18,984 nucleotides of DNA from a virus: IMG/VR virus record IMGVR_UViG_3300045988_168459; one strand, written 5' to 3'. The position numbers were made by a program, and so were the translations under genes. The notes below the pieces were generated by a model. It was given only the letters and a program-made list of their open reading frames with translations. It was not told where the DNA came from and made no database searches. Numbering within the stretch: the stretch's first letter is position 1; each line of letters starts with the position of its first letter. This document shows, one piece after another, positions 2,706 to 18,984 of this stretch.

Positions 2706-2730
2706 AGAGCAGAGAATATCTGCTCTTTTT
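2706..2730. terminator. Bidirectional intrinsic terminator between convergent operons
   Basis: Stem AGAGCAG (2706-2712) pairs with CTGCTCT (2720-2726) around a 7-nt loop, with a T-run after it on the plus strand. It lies between the stop at 2668 (+) and the stop at 2729 (-). Confidence 0.7.
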
Positions 2731-3727
2731 ATTTTACTCCTAAATCTTTTAACATTTCATACATAGCTATTTTTATTTCTATACTTTTAAATCTAACTTT
2801 ACCAAACTGAAAATATCTTATTAAGTTATTAAAACAACTATTCCCAATATATTTATTATTTAAGAATGTATTGTCGTTATGGTCGGACGCTAACACGCTA
2901 AAACATTTTGCAGTTTTAGTGGGTTTATCAGTAATGTATAGTATATCTTTTACAACATTACCCCAAATCATATATTTTTTGTTTTTGTATTCAACCGAGA
3001 AATATTCATCACAATGCTTTAAACTCATTTGCTCTACAAATGTATTGCTATCTCTTAAAGATTTATTTTCAATAGCATAATCACTATATTTTGTATTTCT
3101 TATTAGTTTACCAAACTTTGTTTGCTTTTTCATTTCAATAAAAATGTCATCTGTATTGTATTCTATTACCATTTCTCCATCACGAAGTAATGTAAATCTT
3201 TCACCCTCAACTATTTTTGCATTGAAATAAGTAAAGTAGGGATTAACTTTAGTAATGTTATTAGCTAAGAAAAACATTCTTACATTATTTCTAGTTCTTG
3301 CAACAGTTTCATAAAAATCTAAAGCAACATCAACTTCATTAGGAATATATCTCATACTTACGCTTTTATCAACAATAAATTCATCAAACATTATTGTAGT
3401 TACGTTTGGATAAGCAACCGATTTATACCTTTGTGAAACACTTAGTGCAACCGGAAATCCTGCGACTTTCCCATCTATATGAAATTTTCCCTGCTTATAT
3501 TCCAATTTGTTGTTTGGAAATTTATTTCTTATATCATCAAACCATTTATCATTATCTTTTAATTCTGTTTTCCACCTTCTTAAATATATAAACTGCTCAC
3601 CTTTTTTCAGAAAGTTTTTAATACATTTTTTTTTAAGTCCATAACTTTTACCAAACCCTCTATTTGTCAAAATAAAATTCCAAATCGCATTATAACTACA
3701 TATTTTATCATAATTGTAATAATTCAT
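2729..3727 (-). CDS. DNA encapsidation (packaging) ATPase, phi29 gp16-like
   Basis: Colinear with remembered phi29 gp16: Walker A RGFGKSY, GEQFIYLRRWK, DGKVAGF..LSV, AYPNV.TI.FDEF (Walker B), YIPNEV, NPYF. RBS AAGGAGG. Confidence 0.95.
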   Translation of the reverse strand: MNYYNYDKICSYNAIWNFILTNRGFGKSYGLKKKCIKNFLKKGEQFIYLRRWKTELKDNDKWFDDIRNKFPNNKLEYKQGKFHIDGKVAGFPVALSVSQRYKSVAYPNVTTIMFDEFIVDKSVSMRYIPNEVDVALDFYETVARTRNNVRMFFLANNITKVNPYFTYFNAKIVEGERFTLLRDGEMVIEYNTDDIFIEMKKQTKFGKLIRNTKYSDYAIENKSLRDSNTFVEQMSLKHCDEYFSVEYKNKKYMIWGNVVKDILYITDKPTKTAKCFSVLASDHNDNTFLNNKYIGNSCFNNLIRYFQFGKVRFKSIEIKIAMYEMLKDLGVK

Positions 3728-3748
3728 ATTTTACCTCCTTAAAGAAAA

Positions 3749-3765
3749 AGCACCATTTAGGTGCT
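3749..3765 (-). terminator. Short hairpin between the holin-like gene and the ATPase gene (possible attenuator)
   Basis: AGCACC - loop - GGTGCT palindrome, followed on the minus strand by TTTTCTTT. Confidence 0.35.
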
Positions 3766-3769
3766 TGTC

Positions 3770-3937
3770 TTATTTTTGAAATTTATTTTCTAAAGTTTCC
3801 ATGCGTGTTGATAATTCTTTTAATGTTACATTAAGATTAACTAATGCGTCTGTAAATTTAGCATTGTTAATAAACATTACAATACAACACCCGATTGGAA
3901 AACCTACATTTGAAATCATACTTACTATTTCTTCCAT
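3770..3937 (-). CDS. Holin-like small membrane protein, 55 aa (BhlA/UviB/YvrJ-like topology), not in the ORF track
   Basis: Hand translation gives MEEIVSMISNVGFPIGCCIVMFINNAKFTDALVNLNVTLKELSTRMETLENKFQK. This is one N-terminal TM segment plus a charged helical tail. An upstream purine-rich RBS (GAGAGAGG) is present. It occupies the phi29 gene-14 (holin) position just before the packaging ATPase. Confidence 0.55.
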   Translation of the reverse strand: MEEIVSMISNVGFPIGCCIVMFINNAKFTDALVNLNVTLKELSTRMETLENKFQK

Positions 3938-3982
3938 ATATTTTTACCTCTCTCATATAGTTTTACATAATTTAACTTATTG

Positions 3983-4543
3983 TTAATAAATAACTTTTAA
4001 ACTAATTTCTTTATTGGTTAAACTTATAGAATTATCGGTTACATTTGTGAACCTAAGACATAATACATTTTCATTTTCTATTCTATAATCATATATCACA
4101 CCATTTTCAATAGGTTCACTAAAATAAATATTAATTATAGATGTTTGAGGTATATTATCATCTAATGGTAACATAAAACATTTTGAAGTCTTTGGTTCAA
4201 TTATTGCATTTCCTCCAGTAATAAGCGATAAATCCGAAAAACTTTTTAAAGAAAAATTTAAATTTTTACTTATTTCTGTAATTAATTCATTTTTTAAATT
4301 GATAATTATATAGTTGTTTATTATTTCTTTTAAAGTCCCATCATCTTTCCATGTGTTAAGTATTTCTTTTACATTATCCTCTATACCTTCATTTTTTATC
4401 CAATCTAGTATTTCTGATGAATTGTTACATAAATCTATACATTCTTCTAATTTTTGAAAAAACTTACATTTCAATTCTTCGTTTGTCATTTCCGAAAAAT
4501 CATAAACTTTTTTTAATATATCCTCTGTAATCCCTTTTATCAA
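3983..4543 (-). CDS. Hypothetical late protein, 186 aa (possible tail or receptor-binding accessory)
   Basis: TTG start with RBS AAAGGAGG 8 nt upstream. It lies between the appendage and holin-like genes. No catalytic motif recognised. Confidence 0.7.
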   Translation of the reverse strand: MIKGITEDILKKVYDFSEMTNEELKCKFFQKLEECIDLCNNSSEILDWIKNEGIEDNVKEILNTWKDDGTLKEIINNYIIINLKNELITEISKNLNFSLKSFSDLSLITGGNAIIEPKTSKCFMLPLDDNIPQTSIINIYFSEPIENGVIYDYRIENENVLCLRFTNVTDNSISLTNKEISLKVIY

Positions 4544-6428: not shown

Positions 6429-7082
6429 CTAAAAAACAAATAAGAATAAGTTTTCAAGTTCTTTAAATATCATTAAGTCTATGTTAATTAAAACATTTCT
6501 CCATTTTTCTAAAAGTTCTGCACTTGATGTAACACCAATATTACCTTGTGATATTAATTCATACTCTTCTATATTATTTGACTTATTTTTTATTGTATTG
6601 TTTGCATTTGATGTTGAATTATTTGTTGAATTACTATTACTTTTACTTGCTGATGTCATGTATTTATCTAAGTCGTCAATTTTATTCTGTGGTGTATCAT
6701 TAGCAATTGTTAAATCATTACTGGTAGATGTGTTATCACTACTAGAAGTGGCTTGACTATTTCCCTCACTTTCTCCGTTCAACTTTCTTATATAACTTTC
6801 TTTTAAATCTTTATTTAGCATAAAATCTATATTTTGACATCTTATTTCTGTTTCATAAAGTTGTTTATATTTTGGATAAATGTCATTTAGTGTGGAAATT
6901 AAGTGTTGTTTAAAAATATTAATATTATCAAATCCAATTTCATAAAACATAAAGTGCTGAAAGAATTTTTCTTGAAAGTAAGGCTTTAACTCATTATTAT
7001 ATAAGTTATAAGGTTGGTCAAATAAATTGTAAGTATCATCTTTATAAATGTAATAAAGTTGTAATGTATATTTACTACTCAT
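6429..7082 (-). CDS. Lower collar protein (phi29 gp11 position), 217 aa
   Basis: Start moved to the ATG at 7082 (MSSKYT), with RBS AAGGAGG and an ATGAGTAG overlap with the portal stop. The call rests on synteny immediately after the portal gene. There is a central S/N/T-rich low-complexity region. Confidence 0.6.
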   Translation of the reverse strand: MSSKYTLQLYYIYKDDTYNLFDQPYNLYNNELKPYFQEKFFQHFMFYEIGFDNINIFKQHLISTLNDIYPKYKQLYETEIRCQNIDFMLNKDLKESYIRKLNGESEGNSQATSSSDNTSTSNDLTIANDTPQNKIDDLDKYMTSASKSNSNSTNNSTSNANNTIKNKSNNIEEYELISQGNIGVTSSAELLEKWRNVLINIDLMIFKELENLFLFVF

Positions 7083-7938
7083 TATTTTCCTCCTTTTCCT
7101 CATCATCTTGATAATATTTAGTTATCATTTTTTTGTTAGGTAATACTTTTACATTTAACCCAAATTTTTTATTAATTTCTTCACATGCTTGAAGTCTATT
7201 TTTATACATTAACATTGCATTTGTACTAATAAAATCATTATTAGAATTAATTTCATCTGTTAATAATCTTTCTTTTTTCTCAAAATTATTATTTAATGAT
7301 AAAAAAGTTAATATTTCTCTTTCAAGTTCATATTTATATTCGTTTAGTTTATCAGCTACATAAGGCGTTGGCATAGTTAACACTTCTAATGCATTATCCC
7401 CTAGTCCAATTTCCTTATTAGCTAAAATAAAAGGCTCAAAATTTTCTACCTTTTCAAATATTATTTCTAGTGATTTTTTGGTTTTTTCTGTCGCATTAAT
7501 GAACCATGGAAATTTTTGTTGATTTATATTTGCTCTTATACACATTTCAACTTCTAACATTCTTTCAGCATAATTAGCAATATAATCCCTTGTTGCTTTT
7601 GCTAAATCATTATTTCTAATTAAAACACAATCTTTATTATTTATATAATTAATAGTTTTTATATAATTATAACCCGAAGTTATTACCTCTGTACTTTCAC
7701 CATTGATATTCATTTCAGCTCCATAATTGCAAGGTACTGAAATTAATCCCATGTTGTTATCATCATTTACTAGACATAGACCACATTCATACAAAGCATT
7801 TTCAATATATCTTGAGTTCATAGTTTGAGGTAAATTTTCCCATGTAAACATGTTTAAAGCCAACATTTTATAATAATCATAAATTCTAGTAAAATTTATA
7901 TTTTTATAAACTTCTATTGCTTGTTTATTTTTACTCAT
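7075..7938 (-). CDS. Portal / upper collar connector, phi29 gp10-like
   Basis: Motifs shared with remembered gp10: F.WENLP.T.N, PYV.DKLN, EKKER..TDE..SN, GLNVKV. RBS GGAGGTG. Confidence 0.92.
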   Translation of the reverse strand: MSKNKQAIEVYKNINFTRIYDYYKMLALNMFTWENLPQTMNSRYIENALYECGLCLVNDDNNMGLISVPCNYGAEMNINGESTEVITSGYNYIKTINYINNKDCVLIRNNDLAKATRDYIANYAERMLEVEMCIRANINQQKFPWFINATEKTKKSLEIIFEKVENFEPFILANKEIGLGDNALEVLTMPTPYVADKLNEYKYELEREILTFLSLNNNFEKKERLLTDEINSNNDFISTNAMLMYKNRLQACEEINKKFGLNVKVLPNKKMITKYYQDDEEKEENNE

Positions 7939-7942
7939 AATA

Positions 7943-9232
7943 TTACACCTCCGTATTCCCTTGTAATTGACTTACTGAATAATCTCCAACACTTGCACCA
8001 TTATCAACATGCCAAATCGTTACACCTCTATTAAATATGTCTTTTATTTCTTCTAAGTATTCATGTGGTATTTCCTCCCCTACAATATTACAAGTATTTG
8101 TTTTAATAAAGTTAAAATAACGTCTTGAATTTACATTAATTTTTTCCCATTTATTAACCTTATACCCATACTTCACAAAATAATCATATATTCTATGCTT
8201 GTATCTAAAATCTAATCCAAATTCTATAATATCTATCTTTCTATTACTATTTACTAAATTAAATAGCGTGTCGTTACCACTTGTTTTGATTGAATTTGGA
8301 GTATTTAATAAGTCTGTTGTTTTAGCATTTGCCATTGACGATACTTCAAAATTTGATAATTTATTTTGTTCTTTTAATTGACTATTATTTAAATTATTTG
8401 ATAATGTATTAAAATGCTGGTTTATTCCTGCTTGTGCCACTCCCATTGCTCCGTTCACAACTCCACCAAAATTTAGTGAAAGTAAACTTGCAATTGCACC
8501 TAAACCACTACTAATACCCTGCATGTAATTATTTGTTGTATTTTGTCTATAATTTAAATTATTAGTTGCTAATCCTTGCTTTAATGATAAATCATTTTCT
8601 AACATAGCATTAATATTACCTTGGTTAAAGCTTGCTGAACTTGTTGCTAAAAATTGAGAATAAGCACTCGATAAAACTGGTAACATTAGAGGACTATTAT
8701 TGACAATTCCATTTAAATTTCCATTATAATCTCCTTTGTAACCATTAACATATAAATTATACTTACTTTCTGTTGCAATATTTGTTGCTTTTACTCTTAA
8801 TTTTAATGTCTTATTTTCGCATAATTCGGGTTTTATTACAAGAGGAGTATTCATGTAGTCAGTTACCATAAAATAACGAAAAGGAAAAGTGTATAATTTT
8901 GGTTCAAATGTAGGTAATCCATTATCACTATCGGGAAAAGTGTTTAATTCATATAATTGTTTATCAATTGTATCAAATCCCGACATTCTGTAACATTTAG
9001 GTATACCCCCCTTAGGTGAGCCATATCTATCACTATCGAATGAACACTCAACTATTGTACTCATATCATCAACTTCAATAAAAGGGTTGTATGTTAAACT
9101 TTGGATTGTATCAACAAATCCCAAGTAAGTTGCAGTATTAATTTTTTCCCTAGGTATACAATAATAATATAAACCAACTGGAATATTTCCCATTACACTA
9201 CTTTCAATGTCGTTTCCACTTACAATACTCAT
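7943..9232 (-). CDS. Tail knob protein, phi29 gp9-like middle and C-terminal portion (429 aa)
   Basis: Matches remembered gp9 at LYYYCIP (gp9 LCYYIHP), EPKLYTFPFRY (gp9 ESKLMMYPYC), the Gly/Ala-rich hydrophobic loop GISSGLGAIASLLSLNFGGVVNGAMGVAQAG, and the C-terminus F.KYGYK.N......R.YFNFIKT......IF.RG.T.WH. Confidence 0.88.
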   Translation of the reverse strand: MSIVSGNDIESSVMGNIPVGLYYYCIPREKINTATYLGFVDTIQSLTYNPFIEVDDMSTIVECSFDSDRYGSPKGGIPKCYRMSGFDTIDKQLYELNTFPDSDNGLPTFEPKLYTFPFRYFMVTDYMNTPLVIKPELCENKTLKLRVKATNIATESKYNLYVNGYKGDYNGNLNGIVNNSPLMLPVLSSAYSQFLATSSASFNQGNINAMLENDLSLKQGLATNNLNYRQNTTNNYMQGISSGLGAIASLLSLNFGGVVNGAMGVAQAGINQHFNTLSNNLNNSQLKEQNKLSNFEVSSMANAKTTDLLNTPNSIKTSGNDTLFNLVNSNRKIDIIEFGLDFRYKHRIYDYFVKYGYKVNKWEKINVNSRRYFNFIKTNTCNIVGEEIPHEYLEEIKDIFNRGVTIWHVDNGASVGDYSVSQLQGNTEV

Positions 9233-9244
9233 TCATTACACCTC

Positions 9245-10795
9245 CTAATCATTTATTATACTTCTATATCTATAATCGTCATTTGGTGTTCTATCATTTT
9301 CCATTATATTTGTACCAGTTTGTTTAGCTTCTATTACATGAATTGAACCATCACTATTTTTAGAAATAAACATAACTACATGACCATTATCTGTTTTTCC
9401 TCTTGTGAATACTAAGTCCCCCATTTTTAAATTGTCAAATGTTGTTTCTTTACCATCATTTATTTGTGTGTATGTTGTCCTTGAAATTTTTATTCCATTA
9501 TCATTATACGCCCATTGACATAATCCCGAACAATCAGTTCCATTATCTGAACCAAGTGGAGGGTAATTGCCACCCCACACATAAGGTTTACCTAGCAATT
9601 TTCTTGCACTTGCAATTACATTTTCTCTTATTGTAGAATGTGACGGTTCTTGTCTGTTATATGGAGCTGGTATATAACCCATACCGTTATTATCTGTTAT
9701 ATAACCACTACCGTCTAATATTTCAATTTTTTTATAATTATAGTCTGCATTTAAAAATACATTAGCTTCAGCCTTTCTTCTATTTCTTAAACCTTGCTCA
9801 AATTGTGAACCAGCCATAATAACAGTTGTTTTCCAAGTTTCTGCTATACTTTCTTTACTATCACCATTAATATATTTTGTAAATATTGAGCGACTTGTTA
9901 AACTTCCAGTATTATAATAAAAATCAACAAAAGCGTCAAACTCATTTTGTTTCATTTTATTCATGTCGAAGCCATATGAAACAAAAGTATCATGTACATA
10001 TTTTGAATAATTTTTATACAAACTATCACCCAATACCTCTGACGCTTGTTGTTCCGTACATTTAGGAGCAAGTTGATTATAATGCGCACTATCATATTCA
10101 CTTGTTGTACCATACCCAATAGTGAAAGTTCCATCCCCTAAATTGTAAGGAGTTGAAGAAAATCCTTCACTTTGTTTTATGAAGTAAATACCTAACATAC
10201 TCATGTAACCATCTTTGTATAATGTAGATTGATTACCAGTTGAACCACCACTAGAACCACCATTTATCATTCCAAGTCGTGTAGAACTTGTCAAAAAATA
10301 ACACCCTTTATCGCTATAGTCATAAGCATTGTAAATTTCTTGTACTTTTAACTCACCAACTTCCAAATCTTCGGGTTCTAATAAATTATCCAAGTCAATA
10401 TTGCCGTTACTGTCAAATCTATTACAATGTTGTCTTTCTATATAACTTTCGATTTTATCAAATTTAATGTTAAAATAATAAGTTTGAAATACATCTAACT
10501 TTAATGTAAGTTTTGTACTGTTTTCTGTTACATACTCTTTATTTACAATGAAAAAATATTCCCATCTTGTTCCATTGTTCCATAGACAATAATTATAATT
10601 CATACAATCATCAATATATTTATCAATTGTTAAACTTCTTTCCTTTCTTAAATAAGTACATTCTGTCATTACATATTTTGCTTTATTTAAAAACCAATTA
10701 ATTTGATTATTGATATTTGTAAAATTTACAGTATGATTATAATTAATATCAAGTTCGGGAATACTACAAAAGAATACTTTGCTTAATCGTGGCAT
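9245..10795 (-). CDS. Tail-associated peptidoglycan hydrolase, 516 aa: gp9-like N-terminal domain, phage lysozyme (GH24-like) domain and NlpC/P60 endopeptidase domain
   Basis: Residues 1-125 resemble the gp9 N-terminus (NWF, W.YFFIV, DVFQTYYFNIKF...IERQH). Residues 205-345 carry the lysozyme signature SEGFSSTPYNLGDGTFTIGYG and GLRNRRKAE. Residues 395-480 carry NlpC/P60 motifs GKPYVWGG, DCSGL (Cys) and GHVVMF (His). Confidence 0.9.
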   Translation of the reverse strand: MPRLSKVFFCSIPELDINYNHTVNFTNINNQINWFLNKAKYVMTECTYLRKERSLTIDKYIDDCMNYNYCLWNNGTRWEYFFIVNKEYVTENSTKLTLKLDVFQTYYFNIKFDKIESYIERQHCNRFDSNGNIDLDNLLEPEDLEVGELKVQEIYNAYDYSDKGCYFLTSSTRLGMINGGSSGGSTGNQSTLYKDGYMSMLGIYFIKQSEGFSSTPYNLGDGTFTIGYGTTSEYDSAHYNQLAPKCTEQQASEVLGDSLYKNYSKYVHDTFVSYGFDMNKMKQNEFDAFVDFYYNTGSLTSRSIFTKYINGDSKESIAETWKTTVIMAGSQFEQGLRNRRKAEANVFLNADYNYKKIEILDGSGYITDNNGMGYIPAPYNRQEPSHSTIRENVIASARKLLGKPYVWGGNYPPLGSDNGTDCSGLCQWAYNDNGIKISRTTYTQINDGKETTFDNLKMGDLVFTRGKTDNGHVVMFISKNSDGSIHVIEAKQTGTNIMENDRTPNDDYRYRSIIND

Positions 10796-10839: not shown

Positions 10840-11886
10840 TTATTCTTTTACTACAAATTTTACACAATTTACAAAGTTACAACTTGCAACAATTCCCCAT
10901 CTATTGAACCAAACATTTGTGTAAAGTGCTTGTGGGTTTCTAAATGTTTCAGAACTGTTTAAAGTTTCCCATATTTGTATTGCTTCTTTATCACAAATTA
11001 TACATTGAGTTTCTGTATCTTCGCCATAAGTGTAAGTAGAAGTTGACTTTGTGCATTTTTCGAAATAATCAATTGGTAATACATGAAGATTAATTTCGTC
11101 ATAACTTACATTAAATGCTTGTGCTAATAATTGAACGTCCATGACTGCAAGTAAGTCAGTTGGAACAAAGCAAACTAACTCATTAGGTTTACTGTATGTC
11201 ATTACACCTTGACCGTTATAATTATTAGATAAAAATTTCATCTTTAATATATAAGATTTTATTGCAGTAACTAAGCTTTCAGCCTTAGCTTTTAATGTTA
11301 ATTTATCATATTCAGTTTTTCCAATTTTTACTTCAGCACCTTTTATGTGAGCAAGTGCATGTTTTACTAATAAAAAATCATCATATTCAGCAGAATTTAA
11401 AGGTGCTTGTAAAATTCTACTTGTTAATTCACTTAATCCGTTTTCATTTCTAAACGCTCCCTTTAATTCCTCGTCAGAAATAGTTGCTTGATATTGCATT
11501 TGTTTATTTTCACTATAATATTCAACCGTTACCTTTGGTGCTTGCCTACTTAATAAATCACTTGCTAAATTTGTTGCAGTTGTTTGTCTTGTTCTATCTT
11601 TACCTTTTACAATATCAACAAAAATACTTTCAATTGATTTTCCGTAAGGTAGTATTCCTTTTTTAAATAGCTTGTACGGATTTTCATAAGCCTTATTAAA
11701 AAATCTTTGTTTAGCAACTTGGTTTGTAAGTACAGTTACAAACTCGTTTTTTACCGTAGGATAAGTTGAAATAATATCAGCAATTTTGTGCATATTTGCT
11801 TTTGTAACATCACCTATTCTATCATTAAATTCTTGACTTGTTGCACTTGCAAGTGCTTTTGTAAAAGTAACATTATCTAATGCCAT
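10840..11886 (-). CDS. Major capsid protein, phi29 gp8-like (HK97 fold), 348 aa
   Basis: Shared blocks with remembered gp8: N.F.T.L...., NP.K.FKKG..P.G..IE.I..DI.K.K, LA.AFN, ET.RNP..LY. RBS AGGGGGA. It follows the scaffold gene. Confidence 0.9.
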   Translation of the reverse strand: MALDNVTFTKALASATSQEFNDRIGDVTKANMHKIADIISTYPTVKNEFVTVLTNQVAKQRFFNKAYENPYKLFKKGILPYGKSIESIFVDIVKGKDRTRQTTATNLASDLLSRQAPKVTVEYYSENKQMQYQATISDEELKGAFRNENGLSELTSRILQAPLNSAEYDDFLLVKHALAHIKGAEVKIGKTEYDKLTLKAKAESLVTAIKSYILKMKFLSNNYNGQGVMTYSKPNELVCFVPTDLLAVMDVQLLAQAFNVSYDEINLHVLPIDYFEKCTKSTSTYTYGEDTETQCIICDKEAIQIWETLNSSETFRNPQALYTNVWFNRWGIVASCNFVNCVKFVVKE

Positions 11887-12436: not shown

Positions 12437-13126
12437 TTAATTGTATAATAATTCTTTTATTTCCTCATCTTTTTTGTTTTTAACAATTTGTTTTCTTAAA
12501 CATTCTACCCTTAAATAAACTGTATGTCTTGTAAATTCTTTCCCTTGTTTTGTTTTATAACCATGTTTGGTTAAATAGTTGGCTATTTGACTAAAACTAA
12601 ACCCATCTGATAACATATATAAAATTATTTTATTAATTTCATAATAATAAGAATTTCCACAATCTAAGATTTCATTTATTGCAGTTTCTAAAGTTTCAAA
12701 ATGGTATTCATCTTCTTTCCCAGTATACCTATCAAGTAAATTTTCTCTTTCACTATCACCATTATTTTCTAAAATGTAATCTGTAGAATAATCAGCTCCA
12801 AATTCATTAAATTTTGATTTTCTATCGTTATCCCTTAACTTACTACCTAACTCTCTAAAAATTACTGTTGCTACAAAAGTGTTAGCACTTGATATTTCAT
12901 AATTTAATTGACACCAAACCTTGCTTAATTTTACACAAACAATTGATACACAATCTTCATAGTCTAACTTTAATCTATTGAAACCACTTTTATATTTATC
13001 ATATACCACTTTTACCCTTGCATAAATATATTTCATATTTTCCTCGCAAAACTCGTTAAAGTCTTTATAAATTTTTCTTTCCTTTAATTCTCCAAACTTA
13101 TTTTCTCTTACTATTACTTTACTCAT
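12437..13126 (-). CDS. Sigma-70-family (ECF / group-5-like) RNA polymerase sigma factor, 229 aa
   Basis: Start moved to the ATG at 13126 (RBS AAGGGGA, 9-nt spacing). The region-2-like block is DYEDCVSIVCVKLSK...TFVATVIFRELGSKLRDNDRK. The region-4-like HTH is ILYMLSDGFSFSQIANYL...TVYLRVECLRKQI. Confidence 0.6.
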   Translation of the reverse strand: MSKVIVRENKFGELKERKIYKDFNEFCEENMKYIYARVKVVYDKYKSGFNRLKLDYEDCVSIVCVKLSKVWCQLNYEISSANTFVATVIFRELGSKLRDNDRKSKFNEFGADYSTDYILENNGDSERENLLDRYTGKEDEYHFETLETAINEILDCGNSYYYEINKIILYMLSDGFSFSQIANYLTKHGYKTKQGKEFTRHTVYLRVECLRKQIVKNKKDEEIKELLYN

Positions 13127-13150
13127 TTTCACCAATCCCCTTTTATTTTA

Positions 13151-18708: not shown

Positions 18709-18737
18709 ATTGTATGAATAATTTTTAAAAAAGTTAA
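18709..18737 (-). promoter_or_regulatory. Right-end early promoter TTAACT-17-TACAAT
   Basis: The reverse complement of 18732-18737 is TTAACT, then a 17-nt spacer, and the reverse complement of 18709-18714 is TACAAT. It abuts the inner ITR boundary, mirroring the left-end promoter. Confidence 0.55.
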
Positions 18738-18984
18738 TAAATATTTAAAAGAAATTTATAAAAATTTTCGACAAATATTATATCAAGATATGGAGCAATA
18801 ATGTTATAATTATATATAGGATTATTATACGGTATTTGATACTATATATTATGTATGGAACTGTATGAATATATGGTAATGTATACTATATAGGACAAGC
18901 GAACAGATGTTTTACCTATATGGTATTGATTACTACTTAATGGGGGGAAAGATACCACCCGAAAAATGTGCTAAGGCATTTTTT
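18737..18984. repeat. Right inverted terminal repeat (ITR), 248 bp
   Basis: Exact reverse complement of 1-248. Confidence 0.97.

Follow-up and report, generated by a model that had tools for sequence, protein, structure and literature searches.

A phi29-type tail knob encoded by two adjoining genes in a small gut phage, with two wall-cutting enzymes on the first piece

The published topology of phi29-type tail knobs runs from an N-domain at the top, through an extended linker, to a tip domain at the bottom, and then through a channel loop back to the top (PMC9710869). In solved knobs, the C-terminal domain returns to the top, where it completes the N-domain sheet (PMC9710869), and the channel loop functions as a membrane-active plug (PMC6542822, PMC9710869). 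Knob-borne tail-tip lysins have been described in the form of phi29 gp13, Andhra gp10, and P68 gp11 (PMC6542822, PMC9710869, PMC11476376), and the literature assigns gp13 a C-terminal metallo-endopeptidase (M23/LytM) domain. Knobs encoded by two genes are also known. A 2024 review reports them in Gram-negative phi29-like phages, where they were modeled as a hexamer of heterodimers joined by inter-chain beta-sheets and where AlphaFold3 models place the junction cargo laterally, not at the tip; the review traces the split to the ancestor of the Gram-negative group and leaves Gram-positive cases unmentioned (PMC11476376). Volozhantsev et al. (2012) reported a virion protein of 529 aa with a tail domain, a lysozyme, and an M23 domain adjoining a shortened gp9 homologue, and mass spectrometry of CP7R virions detected the lysozyme-peptidase (59 kDa) as well as the tail protein (46 kDa) (PMC3362512).

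The window analyzed here, a stretch of 18,984 nucleotides, is a complete genome with 248-bp perfect terminal repeats. It is of the ~19-kb protein-primed type, with a family-B DNA polymerase and a gp16 ATPase. In this small gut phage, a phi29-type tail knob is spread over two adjoining genes, with two wall-cutting enzymes attached to the first piece. We designated the products the N-piece and the C-piece. Their genes are flanked by those for the major capsid protein and the connector, as are the unsplit knob genes of the gp9 family, and the downstream collar block (6429..7938, minus strand) encodes the docking partners of the knob. The features are as follows.

10840..11886, minus strand: phi29-type major capsid protein, upstream neighbor (Pfam PF25622, E 6e-77)
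9245..10795 including TAG, minus strand: gene for the 516-aa N-piece with lysozyme and NlpC/P60 (ORF list, Pfam, PHROG, phmmer, AlphaFold, Foldseek)
10460..10795, minus strand: residues 1-112, beta-sandwich like that of a tail tube, counterpart of the gp9 N-terminal domain (Pfam, AlphaFold, Foldseek)
10265..10459, minus strand: residues 113-177, extended segment of gp9 type, counterpart of the Andhra gp12 "N-to-C linker" (alignments, pLDDT)
10205..10264, minus strand: residues 178-197, Gly/Ser-rich flexible tether, NGGSSGGSTGNQS... (sequence; pLDDT <50)
9746..10204, minus strand: residues 198-350, GH24 (T4/P22-type) lysozyme domain (Pfam, invariant columns, pLDDT ~90)
9248..9640, minus strand: residues 386-516, NlpC/P60 cysteine peptidase domain (Pfam, PDB NlpC/P60 matches, invariant columns)
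9233..9247, minus strand: gene junction, with TAG, AGGAGG, and an 8-nt spacer before the ATG at 9232 (sequence)
7943..9232, minus strand: gene for the 429-aa C-piece, equivalent to gp9 from about residue 190 to the end (Pfam, PHROG, phmmer, family HMMs)
8303..8674, minus strand: C-piece residues ~187-310, "channel / L loop", helical, hydrophobic, and rich in Gly, …GISSGLGAIASLLSLNFGGVVNGAMGVAQAGI… (alignments, helix prediction)
7946..8302, minus strand: C-piece residues 311-429, conserved C-terminal domain, TPNSIKTSGNDT…KYGYKVNK…RRYFNFIKT…GVTIWHVDN (sequence identity, HMM alignment)
7075..7938, minus strand: connector/upper collar, downstream neighbor (Pfam PF05352; phrog_2038 and phrog_5472 for the collar genes jointly)
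6429..7106, minus strand: lower collar, downstream neighbor (same Pfam and joint PHROG evidence)
3770..3937, minus strand: holin of 55 aa, 42 nt from the packaging ATPase gene (phrog_4898, E 3e-12)

The first part of the N-piece is homologous to the N-terminal region of gp9. Caud_tail_N (PF16838) matched residues 17-110 with an E value of 1.9e-6 and a score of 28.8 bits, exceeding the gathering cutoff of 27 bits. The gp9-type profile phrog_2248 (590 positions) aligned at positions 3-214 with residues 2-213 (E 3e-30), and the two pieces together cover this profile end to end. In a phmmer comparison with solved phi29 gp9 (5fb4), residues 17-163 aligned with gp9 21-171 (E 1e-10), with the motifs NQ.NWF, W.Y.F, DV.QT..F.IKF, and S.I.R.H in common. 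HMM alignment paired residues 3-177 with gp9 ~11-185. The AlphaFold model of the 516-aa protein, in which pLDDT is high at residues 1-112, matched the gp9 structures 5fb4, 5fb5, and 5fei in Foldseek (E ~1e-7), a check that the preliminary description had proposed. The likeness to the gp9 N terminus that it had noted for residues 1-125 thus extends to residues ~3-177. Residues 113-177 align to gp9 ~120-185 and Andhra gp12 ~118-183, with conserved residues that include S117, R121, H123, R126, E142, E145, G147, and E148, yet residues 113-189 are predicted to be disordered in the isolated chain (pLDDT <50 at 113-177). This combination fits a strand that needs the other subunit in order to fold.

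The lysozyme and NlpC/P60 domains first recognized in this open reading frame (ORF) from short motifs were both recovered by Pfam, as Phage_lysozyme (PF00959) at residues 207-343 (E 2.6e-18) and NLPC_P60 (PF00877) at residues 402-493 (E 1.3e-19). The predicted catalytic residues appear to be intact. Across 31 homologues with 46-95% identity, Glu210, Thr225, Gly227, Tyr228, and Gly229 (the GYG motif) of the lysozyme are invariant, as are Cys422 (in DCSG), His472, and Glu489, the predicted triad of the peptidase. The candidate for the usual GH24 Asp is shifted by 2 residues and falls below 90% conservation. The peptidase also aligns to solved NlpC/P60 domains in both PDB sequence and Foldseek matches.

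The 429-aa protein corresponds to the remainder of gp9, as the preliminary description had claimed. Pfam placed phi29_gp9_C (PF20934) at residues 257-420 (E 9.3e-25), phrog_2248 aligned at positions 193-587 with residues 12-426 (E 7e-38), and phrog_16740 also matched (E 1e-71). The phmmer match to 5fb4, of residues 107-421 to gp9 321-595 (E 9e-23), takes in the Gly-rich loop and the KYGYK..N..KT..WH block, and HMM alignment paired residues 88-420 with gp9 305-596. By alignment, the channel loop is equivalent to the membrane-active plug at gp9 ~409-490 and Andhra gp12 393-500; helices are predicted at residues 188-310 from a low-confidence AlphaFold model (mean pLDDT 32). The C-terminal domain has 38% identity to gp9 481-594. 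Residues 1-87 align weakly to gp9, but the PHROG profile, colinearity in unsplit or single-chain relatives, and length bookkeeping suggest that they may correspond to gp9 ~186-304.

At the junction (...AAT GAT TAG GAG GTG TAA TGA ATG) the TAG of the first gene (9247-9245) overlaps the AGGAGG Shine-Dalgarno site of the second (9246-9241), which lies 8 nt ahead of the ATG at 9232, in agreement with the original observation of a stop embedded in the next ribosome-binding site. The gap between the two ORFs is 12 nt. A member of the gp9 family is expected to have both regions on one polypeptide, and in the window they lie on two. Because the gp9-like parts (177 residues of the N-piece and 429 of the C-piece) sum to 606 aa, compared with 599 aa for gp9 and 588 aa for Andhra gp12, the split is loss-free.

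We consider it highly probable that the window encodes a two-gene phi29-type knob like that of the Clostridium perfringens podophages (Guelinviridae), which would assemble and act as follows. Six copies of the 516-aa protein would form a proximal ring whose tail-tube-like beta-sandwich docks on the lower-collar tube, and each copy would also supply an extended strand that descends along the knob's outer face. The 429-aa protein, likewise in six copies, would supply the distal tip domain, the hydrophobic loops of the channel, which first plug the tube and afterwards enter the membrane, and a C-terminal domain folded back onto the N-domain. At the cut, whose axial position on the knob is taken from the text description of Andhra gp12, the N-piece would continue through the Gly/Ser tether into the lysozyme, acting on glycan strands, and then into the NlpC/P60 peptidase, acting on peptide stems. 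The lateral cargo in the AlphaFold3 models of Gram-negative split knobs (PMC11476376) weighs against this reading. The virion would thus bear on its knob six tethered modules for wall degradation, a set of fixed size that would take over the task of gp13 in phi29 or of the tail-tip lysin in Andhra and P68, and would digest a hole through the thick Gram-positive peptidoglycan so that the knob reaches the membrane. The overlap of the stop with the ribosome-binding site of the next gene suggests translational coupling and near-equal synthesis of both pieces. From this arrangement we infer the stoichiometry of six plus six, the place that the enzymes take on the knob, and a role for them in entry, and the different tail-tip architecture that had been proposed may reasonably be inferred as well.

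There is a negligible chance that the two ORFs are one gene broken by a sequencing error (a concern raised in the preliminary description), by an assembly error, or by a recent inactivating mutation. The ORFs happen to share a reading frame, but they are parted by three in-frame stops (TAG, TAA, and TGA) and a strong Shine-Dalgarno site, and in relatives the genes lie in other frames with the same layout; in most of 33 IMG/VR relatives, a stop (TAA or TAG) and a Shine-Dalgarno site are followed by a start 11-15 nt downstream. The split was kept in all 33 IMG/VR relatives that have both genes, in three further metagenomic contigs at 63, 51, and 45% identity, and in phiZP2, phiQ, and CpV1, the cultured C. 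perfringens phages that were compared, and the identical 18,984-bp contig is present in JGI, ENA, and Logan. Since the two-ORF state is kept in every relative examined, it is not a sequencing error, and an artifact is ruled out. What comparison of the sequences demonstrates is homology for every part, a split that is clean and loses nothing, its retention, and intact catalytic residues. Placement of the N-piece away from the canonical top of the knob, for example in a separate ring or cap distal to a knob made by the C-piece, as a detachable tail-tip lysin complex, is very improbable. The N-domain is a generic tail-tube fold that can stack in several contexts (PMC11476376), and the predicted disorder of residues 113-189 would suit such a placement. 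However, the linker segment and the C-terminal block, which pack together in solved knobs, are both kept at gp9-like positions, single-chain relatives with an enzyme at the same point have the normal order of N-domain, insert, and C-region, and the bookkeeping of lengths gives one complete knob subunit from the two pieces.

A role for the 516-aa protein as the endolysin, in which unassembled copies leave via the holin and the gp9-like N terminus is secondary, or in which the protein serves both entry and exit, is unlikely, although the genome offers some encouragement for it. The lysozyme domain and the catalytic part of the phi29 endolysin gp15 are homologues (31% identity, E 6e-10) and belong to the same Pfam family, PF00959. 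In this complete genome, no other ORF has a recognizable peptidoglycan hydrolase domain. A holin is present, and the slot between the holin and packaging ATPase genes, which holds an Amidase_3+SPOR gene in relatives with 57-64% identity (loci L020, L029, and L033), is empty in the window. However, an unrecognized lysin could hide among the small ORFs, the homologue in phage CP7R is a virion protein, and no conserved internal start or Shine-Dalgarno site able to yield free enzyme was found in the N-piece gene. Sister clades have both the knob fusion and a dedicated endolysin, which argues that the ancestral role of the fusion was not lysis. It is possible, though doubtful, that after loss of the Amidase_3+SPOR endolysin the knob-borne lysozyme and NlpC/P60 peptidase became the only muralytic enzyme of this clade, serving entry as well as holin-aided lysis. 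If so, this would be a tailed-phage case of one structural lysin for both entry and exit. Such dual use of a single structural lysin is known for PRD1 P15 and phi6 P5.

The two-gene knob with enzymes at the cut fits a broader pattern. In a census of 83 representatives of 50% clusters that had the gp9 N-domain without the gp9-C region, the detached N-piece often bore hydrolase domains: lysozyme in 36, M23 in 24, NlpC/P60 in 13, glucosaminidase in 6, and SLT in 3. Single-chain forms also exist. One chain with N-domain, M23, and gp9-C regions (P0324) occurs in identical form on 3 contigs, which come from at least 2 samples, another (P0314) has a lysozyme in the same place, and in these relatives the C-family profile begins at position 13-17, directly past the inserted enzyme. 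Together with the Ig-like domains of the Gram-negative phages, these within-chain enzymes and at least six hydrolase families show, as judged from predicted domains, that the N/C junction of the knob is a general cargo site. The lysozyme and NlpC/P60 cassette also occurs, with ~50% identity, at the C terminus of 963-996-aa tail proteins on prophage-like contigs, which marks it as a virion-associated lysin cassette.

These findings leave unchanged the accepted view of how such phages work. A covalently fused lysin would mean a fixed, symmetric enzyme dose on the knob. The tail-tip lysins of phi29, Andhra, and P68 are separate proteins that occur in few copies and are poorly resolved, so a split-knob phage would offer a clearer view of how wall digestion is linked to the opening of the channel in a short-tailed phage. 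Knowledge of the junction could help to engineer lysins onto phi29-like phages, and the assignment has value for annotation because the two halves are now labeled "Major tail protein" or "NlpC family hydrolase."

The cassette itself has counterparts in long-tailed systems. Tail-tip proteins of low-GC clostridial siphophages and prophages (phi3626 gp15-type) have the same cassette, with ~50% identity over window residues 203-516, and the diffocin hub-hydrolase CD1368 (PDB 8V3W) has a lysozyme and NlpC/P60 cassette at the business end of the tail. In long-tailed phages and tailocins the carrier is a tail-tip or hub protein of ~965-996 aa, whereas in the window it is the N-domain of the knob.

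The beta-sandwich, linker, channel loop, and C-terminal block of phi29 gp9 (5FB4, 5FB5), Andhra gp12, and phage C1 gp12 are colinear with the window proteins. Those knobs are homohexamers of one chain of 588-599 aa, in contrast to the two chains of the window, where the cut falls at about gp9 residue 185-195 and ~340 aa of enzymes are added to the first chain. The preliminary description had likened these enzymes to gp13. The likeness is one of function: phi29 gp13, Andhra gp10, and P68 gp11 are virion-associated modules of glycosidase and peptidase on the knob, and the N-piece is predicted to bear one as well. The families differ, however, with PF18013 and M23 in gp13, GyH and CHAP in Andhra gp10, and PF00959 and PF00877 in the window. 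In Pfam, gp13 matched Phage_lysozyme2 (PF18013) only, and BLASTP of the 516-aa protein against gp13 gave nothing below E 0.9. The gp13, gp10, and gp11 lysins are polypeptides of their own, present in low or uncertain number (about 2 copies), whereas those of the window are fused.

The phages Phanie (Acinetobacter), Astrid (Salmonella), and DU_PP_III (Pectobacterium) have separate genes for the N- and C-parts of the knob, as in the window. The junction cargo differs: Ig-like domains start the C-part in the Gram-negative phages, and hydrolases end the N-part in the window. The Gram-negative N-part is without enzymes, whereas the N-part in the window has two and, from length bookkeeping, its C-piece has no extra domains. 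The Gram-positive cases show, on the evidence of gene content, that the split is wider than the Gram-negative group or arose more than once.

The closest likeness is to the Guelinviridae (phiCP7R, phiCPV4, phiZP2, CpV1, phi24R, CPS1, and others), which have a "lysozyme-peptidase" structural protein and a shortened gp9-like "tail protein." Their gene order of major capsid protein, N-piece-hydrolase, C-piece, (holin), and connector is that of the window, and in loci L001-L003 the gp9-C gene follows the lysozyme-peptidase gene immediately, as it does in the window. Common to both are a gp9-like region of residues ~1-180, a central PF00959 lysozyme, and then a gp9-C gene of ~400-430 aa; in phiZP2, phiQ, and CpV1, Pfam finds the same gp9-like N-region and PF00959 lysozyme. 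The Guelinviridae-type "lysozyme-peptidase" profile phrog_16615 matched N-piece residues 5-380 (E 1.6e-60), tblastn of the N-piece against Guelinviridae gave 26-30% identity over residues 4-443, and protein identities overall are 26-31%. The Guelinviridae have a separate amidase endolysin, whereas none is recognizable in the window. The C-terminal enzyme also differs, with Peptidase_M23 in the Guelinviridae isolates (E ~1e-28 to 1e-31) and NLPC_P60 in the window, where Pfam found no M23 domain in the 516-aa protein. This layout is standard in the C. perfringens Guelinviridae and is on record both in GenBank annotations and in PMC3362512, so the arrangement is of a known kind. A split knob with enzymes is a known design, that of the C. 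perfringens podophages and hundreds of metagenomic relatives; the window adds a member from an uncultivated lineage, with at most 31% identity to the isolates and with NlpC/P60 where they have M23.

The preliminary description of the window proposed that its homolog of the phi29 tail knob protein gp9 is divided between two genes, the first of which also encodes a lysozyme and an NlpC/P60 peptidase. Both open reading frames (ORFs) are located where they had been placed, and Pfam recognized both enzymes in the first.

9245..10795, minus strand: ORF of the 516-aa protein (Pfam: Caud_tail_N, residues 17-110; Phage_lysozyme, residues 207-343; NLPC_P60, residues 402-493)
7943..9232, minus strand: ORF of the 429-aa protein (Pfam: phi29_gp9_C, residues 257-420)

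The two proteins cover in turn one and the same PHROG profile of gp9 type (590 positions), with residues 2-213 of the 516-aa protein matching positions 3-214 and residues 12-426 of the 429-aa protein matching positions 193-587. The N-terminal residues of the 516-aa protein are thus linked to gp9 by this profile as well as by Caud_tail_N. When phmmer was used with the sequence of the solved phi29 gp9, residues 17-163 of the 516-aa protein aligned with gp9 residues 21-171 (E 1e-10) and residues 107-421 of the 429-aa protein with gp9 residues 321-595 (E 9e-23), and the alignments reproduced all of the gp9 motifs previously listed. Three domains are predicted with confidence in the AlphaFold model of the 516-aa protein, and confidence is low at residues 113-127 and 137-189. 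Foldseek comparison of this model, a check that had been suggested, returned gp9 crystal structures (E ~1e-7), NlpC/P60 peptidases, and GH24 endolysins. The AlphaFold2 model of the 429-aa protein, built on an alignment of near-identical homologues plus one at 58%, was unusable (mean pLDDT 32). The catalytic residues Glu210, Thr225, Cys422, His472, and Glu489 of the 516-aa protein are invariant across 31 homologues. These results confirm the original observation, and the similarities far exceed chance.

Two adjacent ORFs of this kind might be one gene broken by a sequencing error or might be fused in translation by readthrough or recoding of the stop. In the window the knob ORFs share one frame, with TAG-GAG-GTG-TAA-TGA between them (9230-9247), and the TAG stop of the 516-aa ORF overlaps the next ribosome-binding site, as had been noted. 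This site, AGGAGG, is 8 nt upstream of the next ATG. The shared frame is coincidental, because the knob ORFs of some relatives are in different frames. The split was kept in every relative examined: phiZP2, phiQ, and CpV1; three metagenomic contigs with first proteins 63, 51, and 45% identical to the 516-aa protein; and all 33 of the 33 IMG/VR podophage loci having both genes. Relatives have a stereotyped junction, in which the stop is TAA or TAG, a GGAGG-type site lies at or beside this stop, and the start follows 11-15 nt downstream. This arrangement argues for translational coupling and against sequencing error, readthrough, or recoding. Fusion of the ORFs by readthrough or recoding was also rejected because the window has three different in-frame stops and relatives have either TAA or TAG, some with a change of frame.

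The cut was mapped with an alignment profile built from gp9, Andhra gp12, and a further 30 unsplit knob proteins. On this profile, residues 3-177 of the 516-aa protein correspond to approximately residues 11-185 of gp9, and residues 88-420 of the 429-aa protein to gp9 residues 305-596. The lengths 177 and 429 sum to 606 aa, versus 599 and 588 aa in the unsplit gp9 and Andhra gp12. Judged from these alignments and lengths, the split is loss-free, with the cut near gp9 residue 185-195 and the enzymes appended at the cut.

Published structures trace the knob chain from an N-terminal beta-sandwich, which sits on top and abuts the lower collar, through an extended "N-to-C linker" to the "tip" domain, an elongated sheet at the bottom. 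A channel loop of helices first plugs the tube and afterwards becomes the membrane pore, and the C-terminal domain returns to the top, where it completes the N-domain sheet (PMC9710869, PMC6542822). Mapped onto this topology, the 516-aa protein would provide the top ring and the linker, and the 429-aa protein would provide the tip domain, the channel loop (residues ~187-310), and the C-terminal domain. Linker residues 113-177 are conserved, yet the monomer model of the 516-aa protein shows them disordered, as expected of a strand that folds against its partner. Beyond the linker, a Gly/Ser tether leads to the lysozyme and then to the NlpC/P60 peptidase. The mapping predicts a 6+6 knob whose outer surface carries six tethered pairs of enzymes; during penetration, these would cleave glycan strands and peptide stems, replacing a separate gp13 or tail-tip lysin. 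The position of the junction in the knob is taken from the published description of Andhra. In the passages of a 2024 review that treat Gram-negative split knobs, AlphaFold3 models position junction cargo laterally (PMC11476376), and thus a "distal tip" location for the enzymes should not be assumed.

The comparison previously drawn with gp13, the separate protein with wall-degrading activities in phi29, holds for function but not for homology. Homology of the enzyme part to gp13 was rejected because gp13 matched Pfam family PF18013 alone, whereas the window lysozyme belongs to PF00959. This lysozyme shares 31% identity with the catalytic domain of gp15, the endolysin of phi29.

The combination of Caud_tail_N, lysozyme, and NlpC/P60 is common to >120 database clusters with 45-94% identity. 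To survey what is carried at the junction, residues 1-195 of the 516-aa protein were compared with 1.84 billion cluster representatives. This census yielded 2,644 clusters at E <= 1e-3, and the best 150 were classified with purpose-built domain profiles.

Architectures among the best 150 of the 2,644 census clusters (N, gp9-like N-terminal region; gp9-C, remainder of gp9)
Unsplit (N + gp9-C only): 64
N + lysozyme + M23: 14
N + lysozyme: 13
N + lysozyme + NlpC/P60: 8
N + NlpC/P60 + lysozyme: 2
N + M23: 6
N + NlpC/P60: 5
N alone or with unrecognised domains: 35
gp9-C + enzyme in one chain: 3

In a Pfam scan of the 83 representatives without gp9-C from these best 150, lysozyme was found in 36, M23 in 24, NlpC/P60 in 13, glucosaminidase in 6, and SLT in 3. 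Two census proteins carry an enzyme inside a complete single-chain knob at the same N/C junction. P0324 (743 aa; comparison contigs L009:4001-6232 and L010:1675-3906) is N + M23 + gp9-C, and P0314 (812 aa; L008:546-2984) is N + lysozyme + gp9-C. Three contigs, from two or more samples, carry identical copies of P0324 in a normal phi29-like gene order. These proteins may be intermediates or re-fusions in the history of knob fission.

A lysozyme + NlpC/P60 cassette 47-58% (~50%) identical to residues 203-516 of the 516-aa protein also forms the C-terminal end of 963-996-aa tail proteins. These are encoded on 35-43-kb prophage-like contigs of 28-29% G+C from isolate genomes (L036, L039, L041, L042, L044, and L045; ORFs ending near locus position 11000). 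The similarity suggests that long-tailed and short-tailed phages have exchanged cassettes, and it points to a clostridium-like host. The census, the single-chain inserts, and the prophage cassettes together indicate that the knob N/C junction is a general cargo site and that its enzymes are virion-lysin cassettes open to exchange. In two distant relatives the pair is shorter (L052:1590-3582 and L053:3053-5035): a 350-aa protein has N + NlpC/P60 only, and the C-terminal piece is 309-312 aa. Each has a separate SH3_5-bearing lysin, with lysozyme in L053 (11304-12017) and glucosaminidase in L052 (6790-7482). Glycosidase activity may move between knob and endolysin.

The only recognisable peptidoglycan hydrolase domains in the complete genome are those of the 516-aa protein. 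Searches of the other window ORFs with Pfam, PHROGs, and PDB phmmer found no hidden endolysin. The relevant genes are located within window positions 2729-4543.

3770..3937, minus strand: holin, 55 aa, 42 nt from the packaging ATPase gene
2729..3727, minus strand: packaging ATPase

Relatives at 57-64% identity have a ~222-aa Amidase_3+SPOR endolysin in the slot between holin and ATPase, and Amidase_3(+SPOR) occupies it in relatives at 42-64% (compare L020:9881-10549, L029:12689-13354, and L033:13103-13852). More distant relatives have Amidase_3, glucosaminidase+SH3, or lysozyme+SH3 genes. The slot gene is absent from the window's own clade (>=81% identity; L011-L017, L028) and from the clade with N + NlpC/P60 + lysozyme (L043, L046-L051). 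Either the lysin is an unrecognised small protein or the knob protein doubles as endolysin. Because sister clades have both the fusion and an endolysin, the primary role of the fusion is considered to be entry, and dual use of the knob protein in the window phage is possible. An internal start yielding a free lysozyme-peptidase was rejected, as Met198 and Met200 are unconserved and have no upstream Shine-Dalgarno sequence.

The window is an 18,984-bp linear sequence (~25% G+C) with perfect inverted terminal repeats of 248 bp (1-248 and 18737-18984), which indicate that the genome is complete, linear, and protein-primed. Their length far exceeds the 6 bp of phi29 and the 25-30 bp annotated in CpV1 and phiZP2. 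The phi29-like gene set is full, including a family-B DNA polymerase, gp16-type packaging ATPase, phi29-type major capsid protein, connector, lower collar, and pre-neck-appendage-like protein. In addition, the N-terminal ~90 aa of a 186-aa protein (3983-4543, minus strand) resemble the phi29 pre-neck appendage anchor (phrog_17212; 6qz9 E 0.003). Relatives have this N terminus at the head of far longer proteins, of 450 aa with GH113 (L016:9957-11309), 496 aa with a metallo-beta-lactamase fold and a choline-binding repeat (L029:10877-12367), and 724 aa (L020:7105-9279). The 186-aa protein is apparently a modular appendage protein, the second one in addition to that of 601 aa. A 232-aa protein encoded between the genes for DNA polymerase and scaffold (12437-13135, minus strand) has a C-terminal helix-turn-helix with a weak Recombinase/integrase-type match; a non-homologous 211-aa ORF in several relatives matches ECF sigma-factor region 4 (compare L026:11649-12284). 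The 232-aa protein may be a transcription regulator in place of phi29 gp4.

An identical contig is present in JGI, ENA, and Logan, and the 429-aa protein has 96-100% identical counterparts on hundreds of metagenomic contigs of ~19 kb. A profile search with the family of this protein added no diversity, all relatives having at least 96% identity. No close DNA match was found among 50,697 deposited phage genomes. A scan of GTDB genomes with the enzyme cassette recovered short fragments alone, all in faecal MAGs with the label Bacilli or Clostridia. A low-GC Firmicute of the gut is the most likely host.

Among cultured phages, the nearest relatives are Clostridium perfringens podophages (Guelinviridae), with 26-31% protein identity. 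The initial interpretation of a split knob with fused hydrolases is right, but this is the family norm in Guelinviridae-like phages, because GenBank and Volozhantsev et al. 2012 already describe the same design. The phiZP2 gp21 annotation reads "PHA00380 Tail protein; lysozyme_like; Peptidase_M23," and a 399-aa "tail protein" comes next. Volozhantsev et al. 2012 described a 529-aa protein with phage-tail (1-150), lysozyme (200-350), and M23 (400-500) domains and a gp9 homologue "much smaller" than its Bacillus-phage counterpart; CP7R virions contained both proteins by mass spectrometry, and a gp13-like role was proposed (PMC3362512). The relevant passages of the 2024 review describe two-gene knobs with N and C parts, modelled as a hexamer of heterodimers, for Gram-negative phi29-like phages only, with Ig-like domains at the junction; these passages do not mention Gram-positive split knobs (PMC11476376). 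Our literature search found no structural work on a split knob that carries fused hydrolases. What is modestly new here is the mapping of a loss-free cut, the breadth and modularity of junction cargo, including single-chain inserts, and the missing endolysin. The window adds a new, uncultivated member to a known design, the Guelinviridae-type split knob with its lysin cassette; here NlpC/P60 replaces the C-terminal M23 enzyme of the C. perfringens phages.
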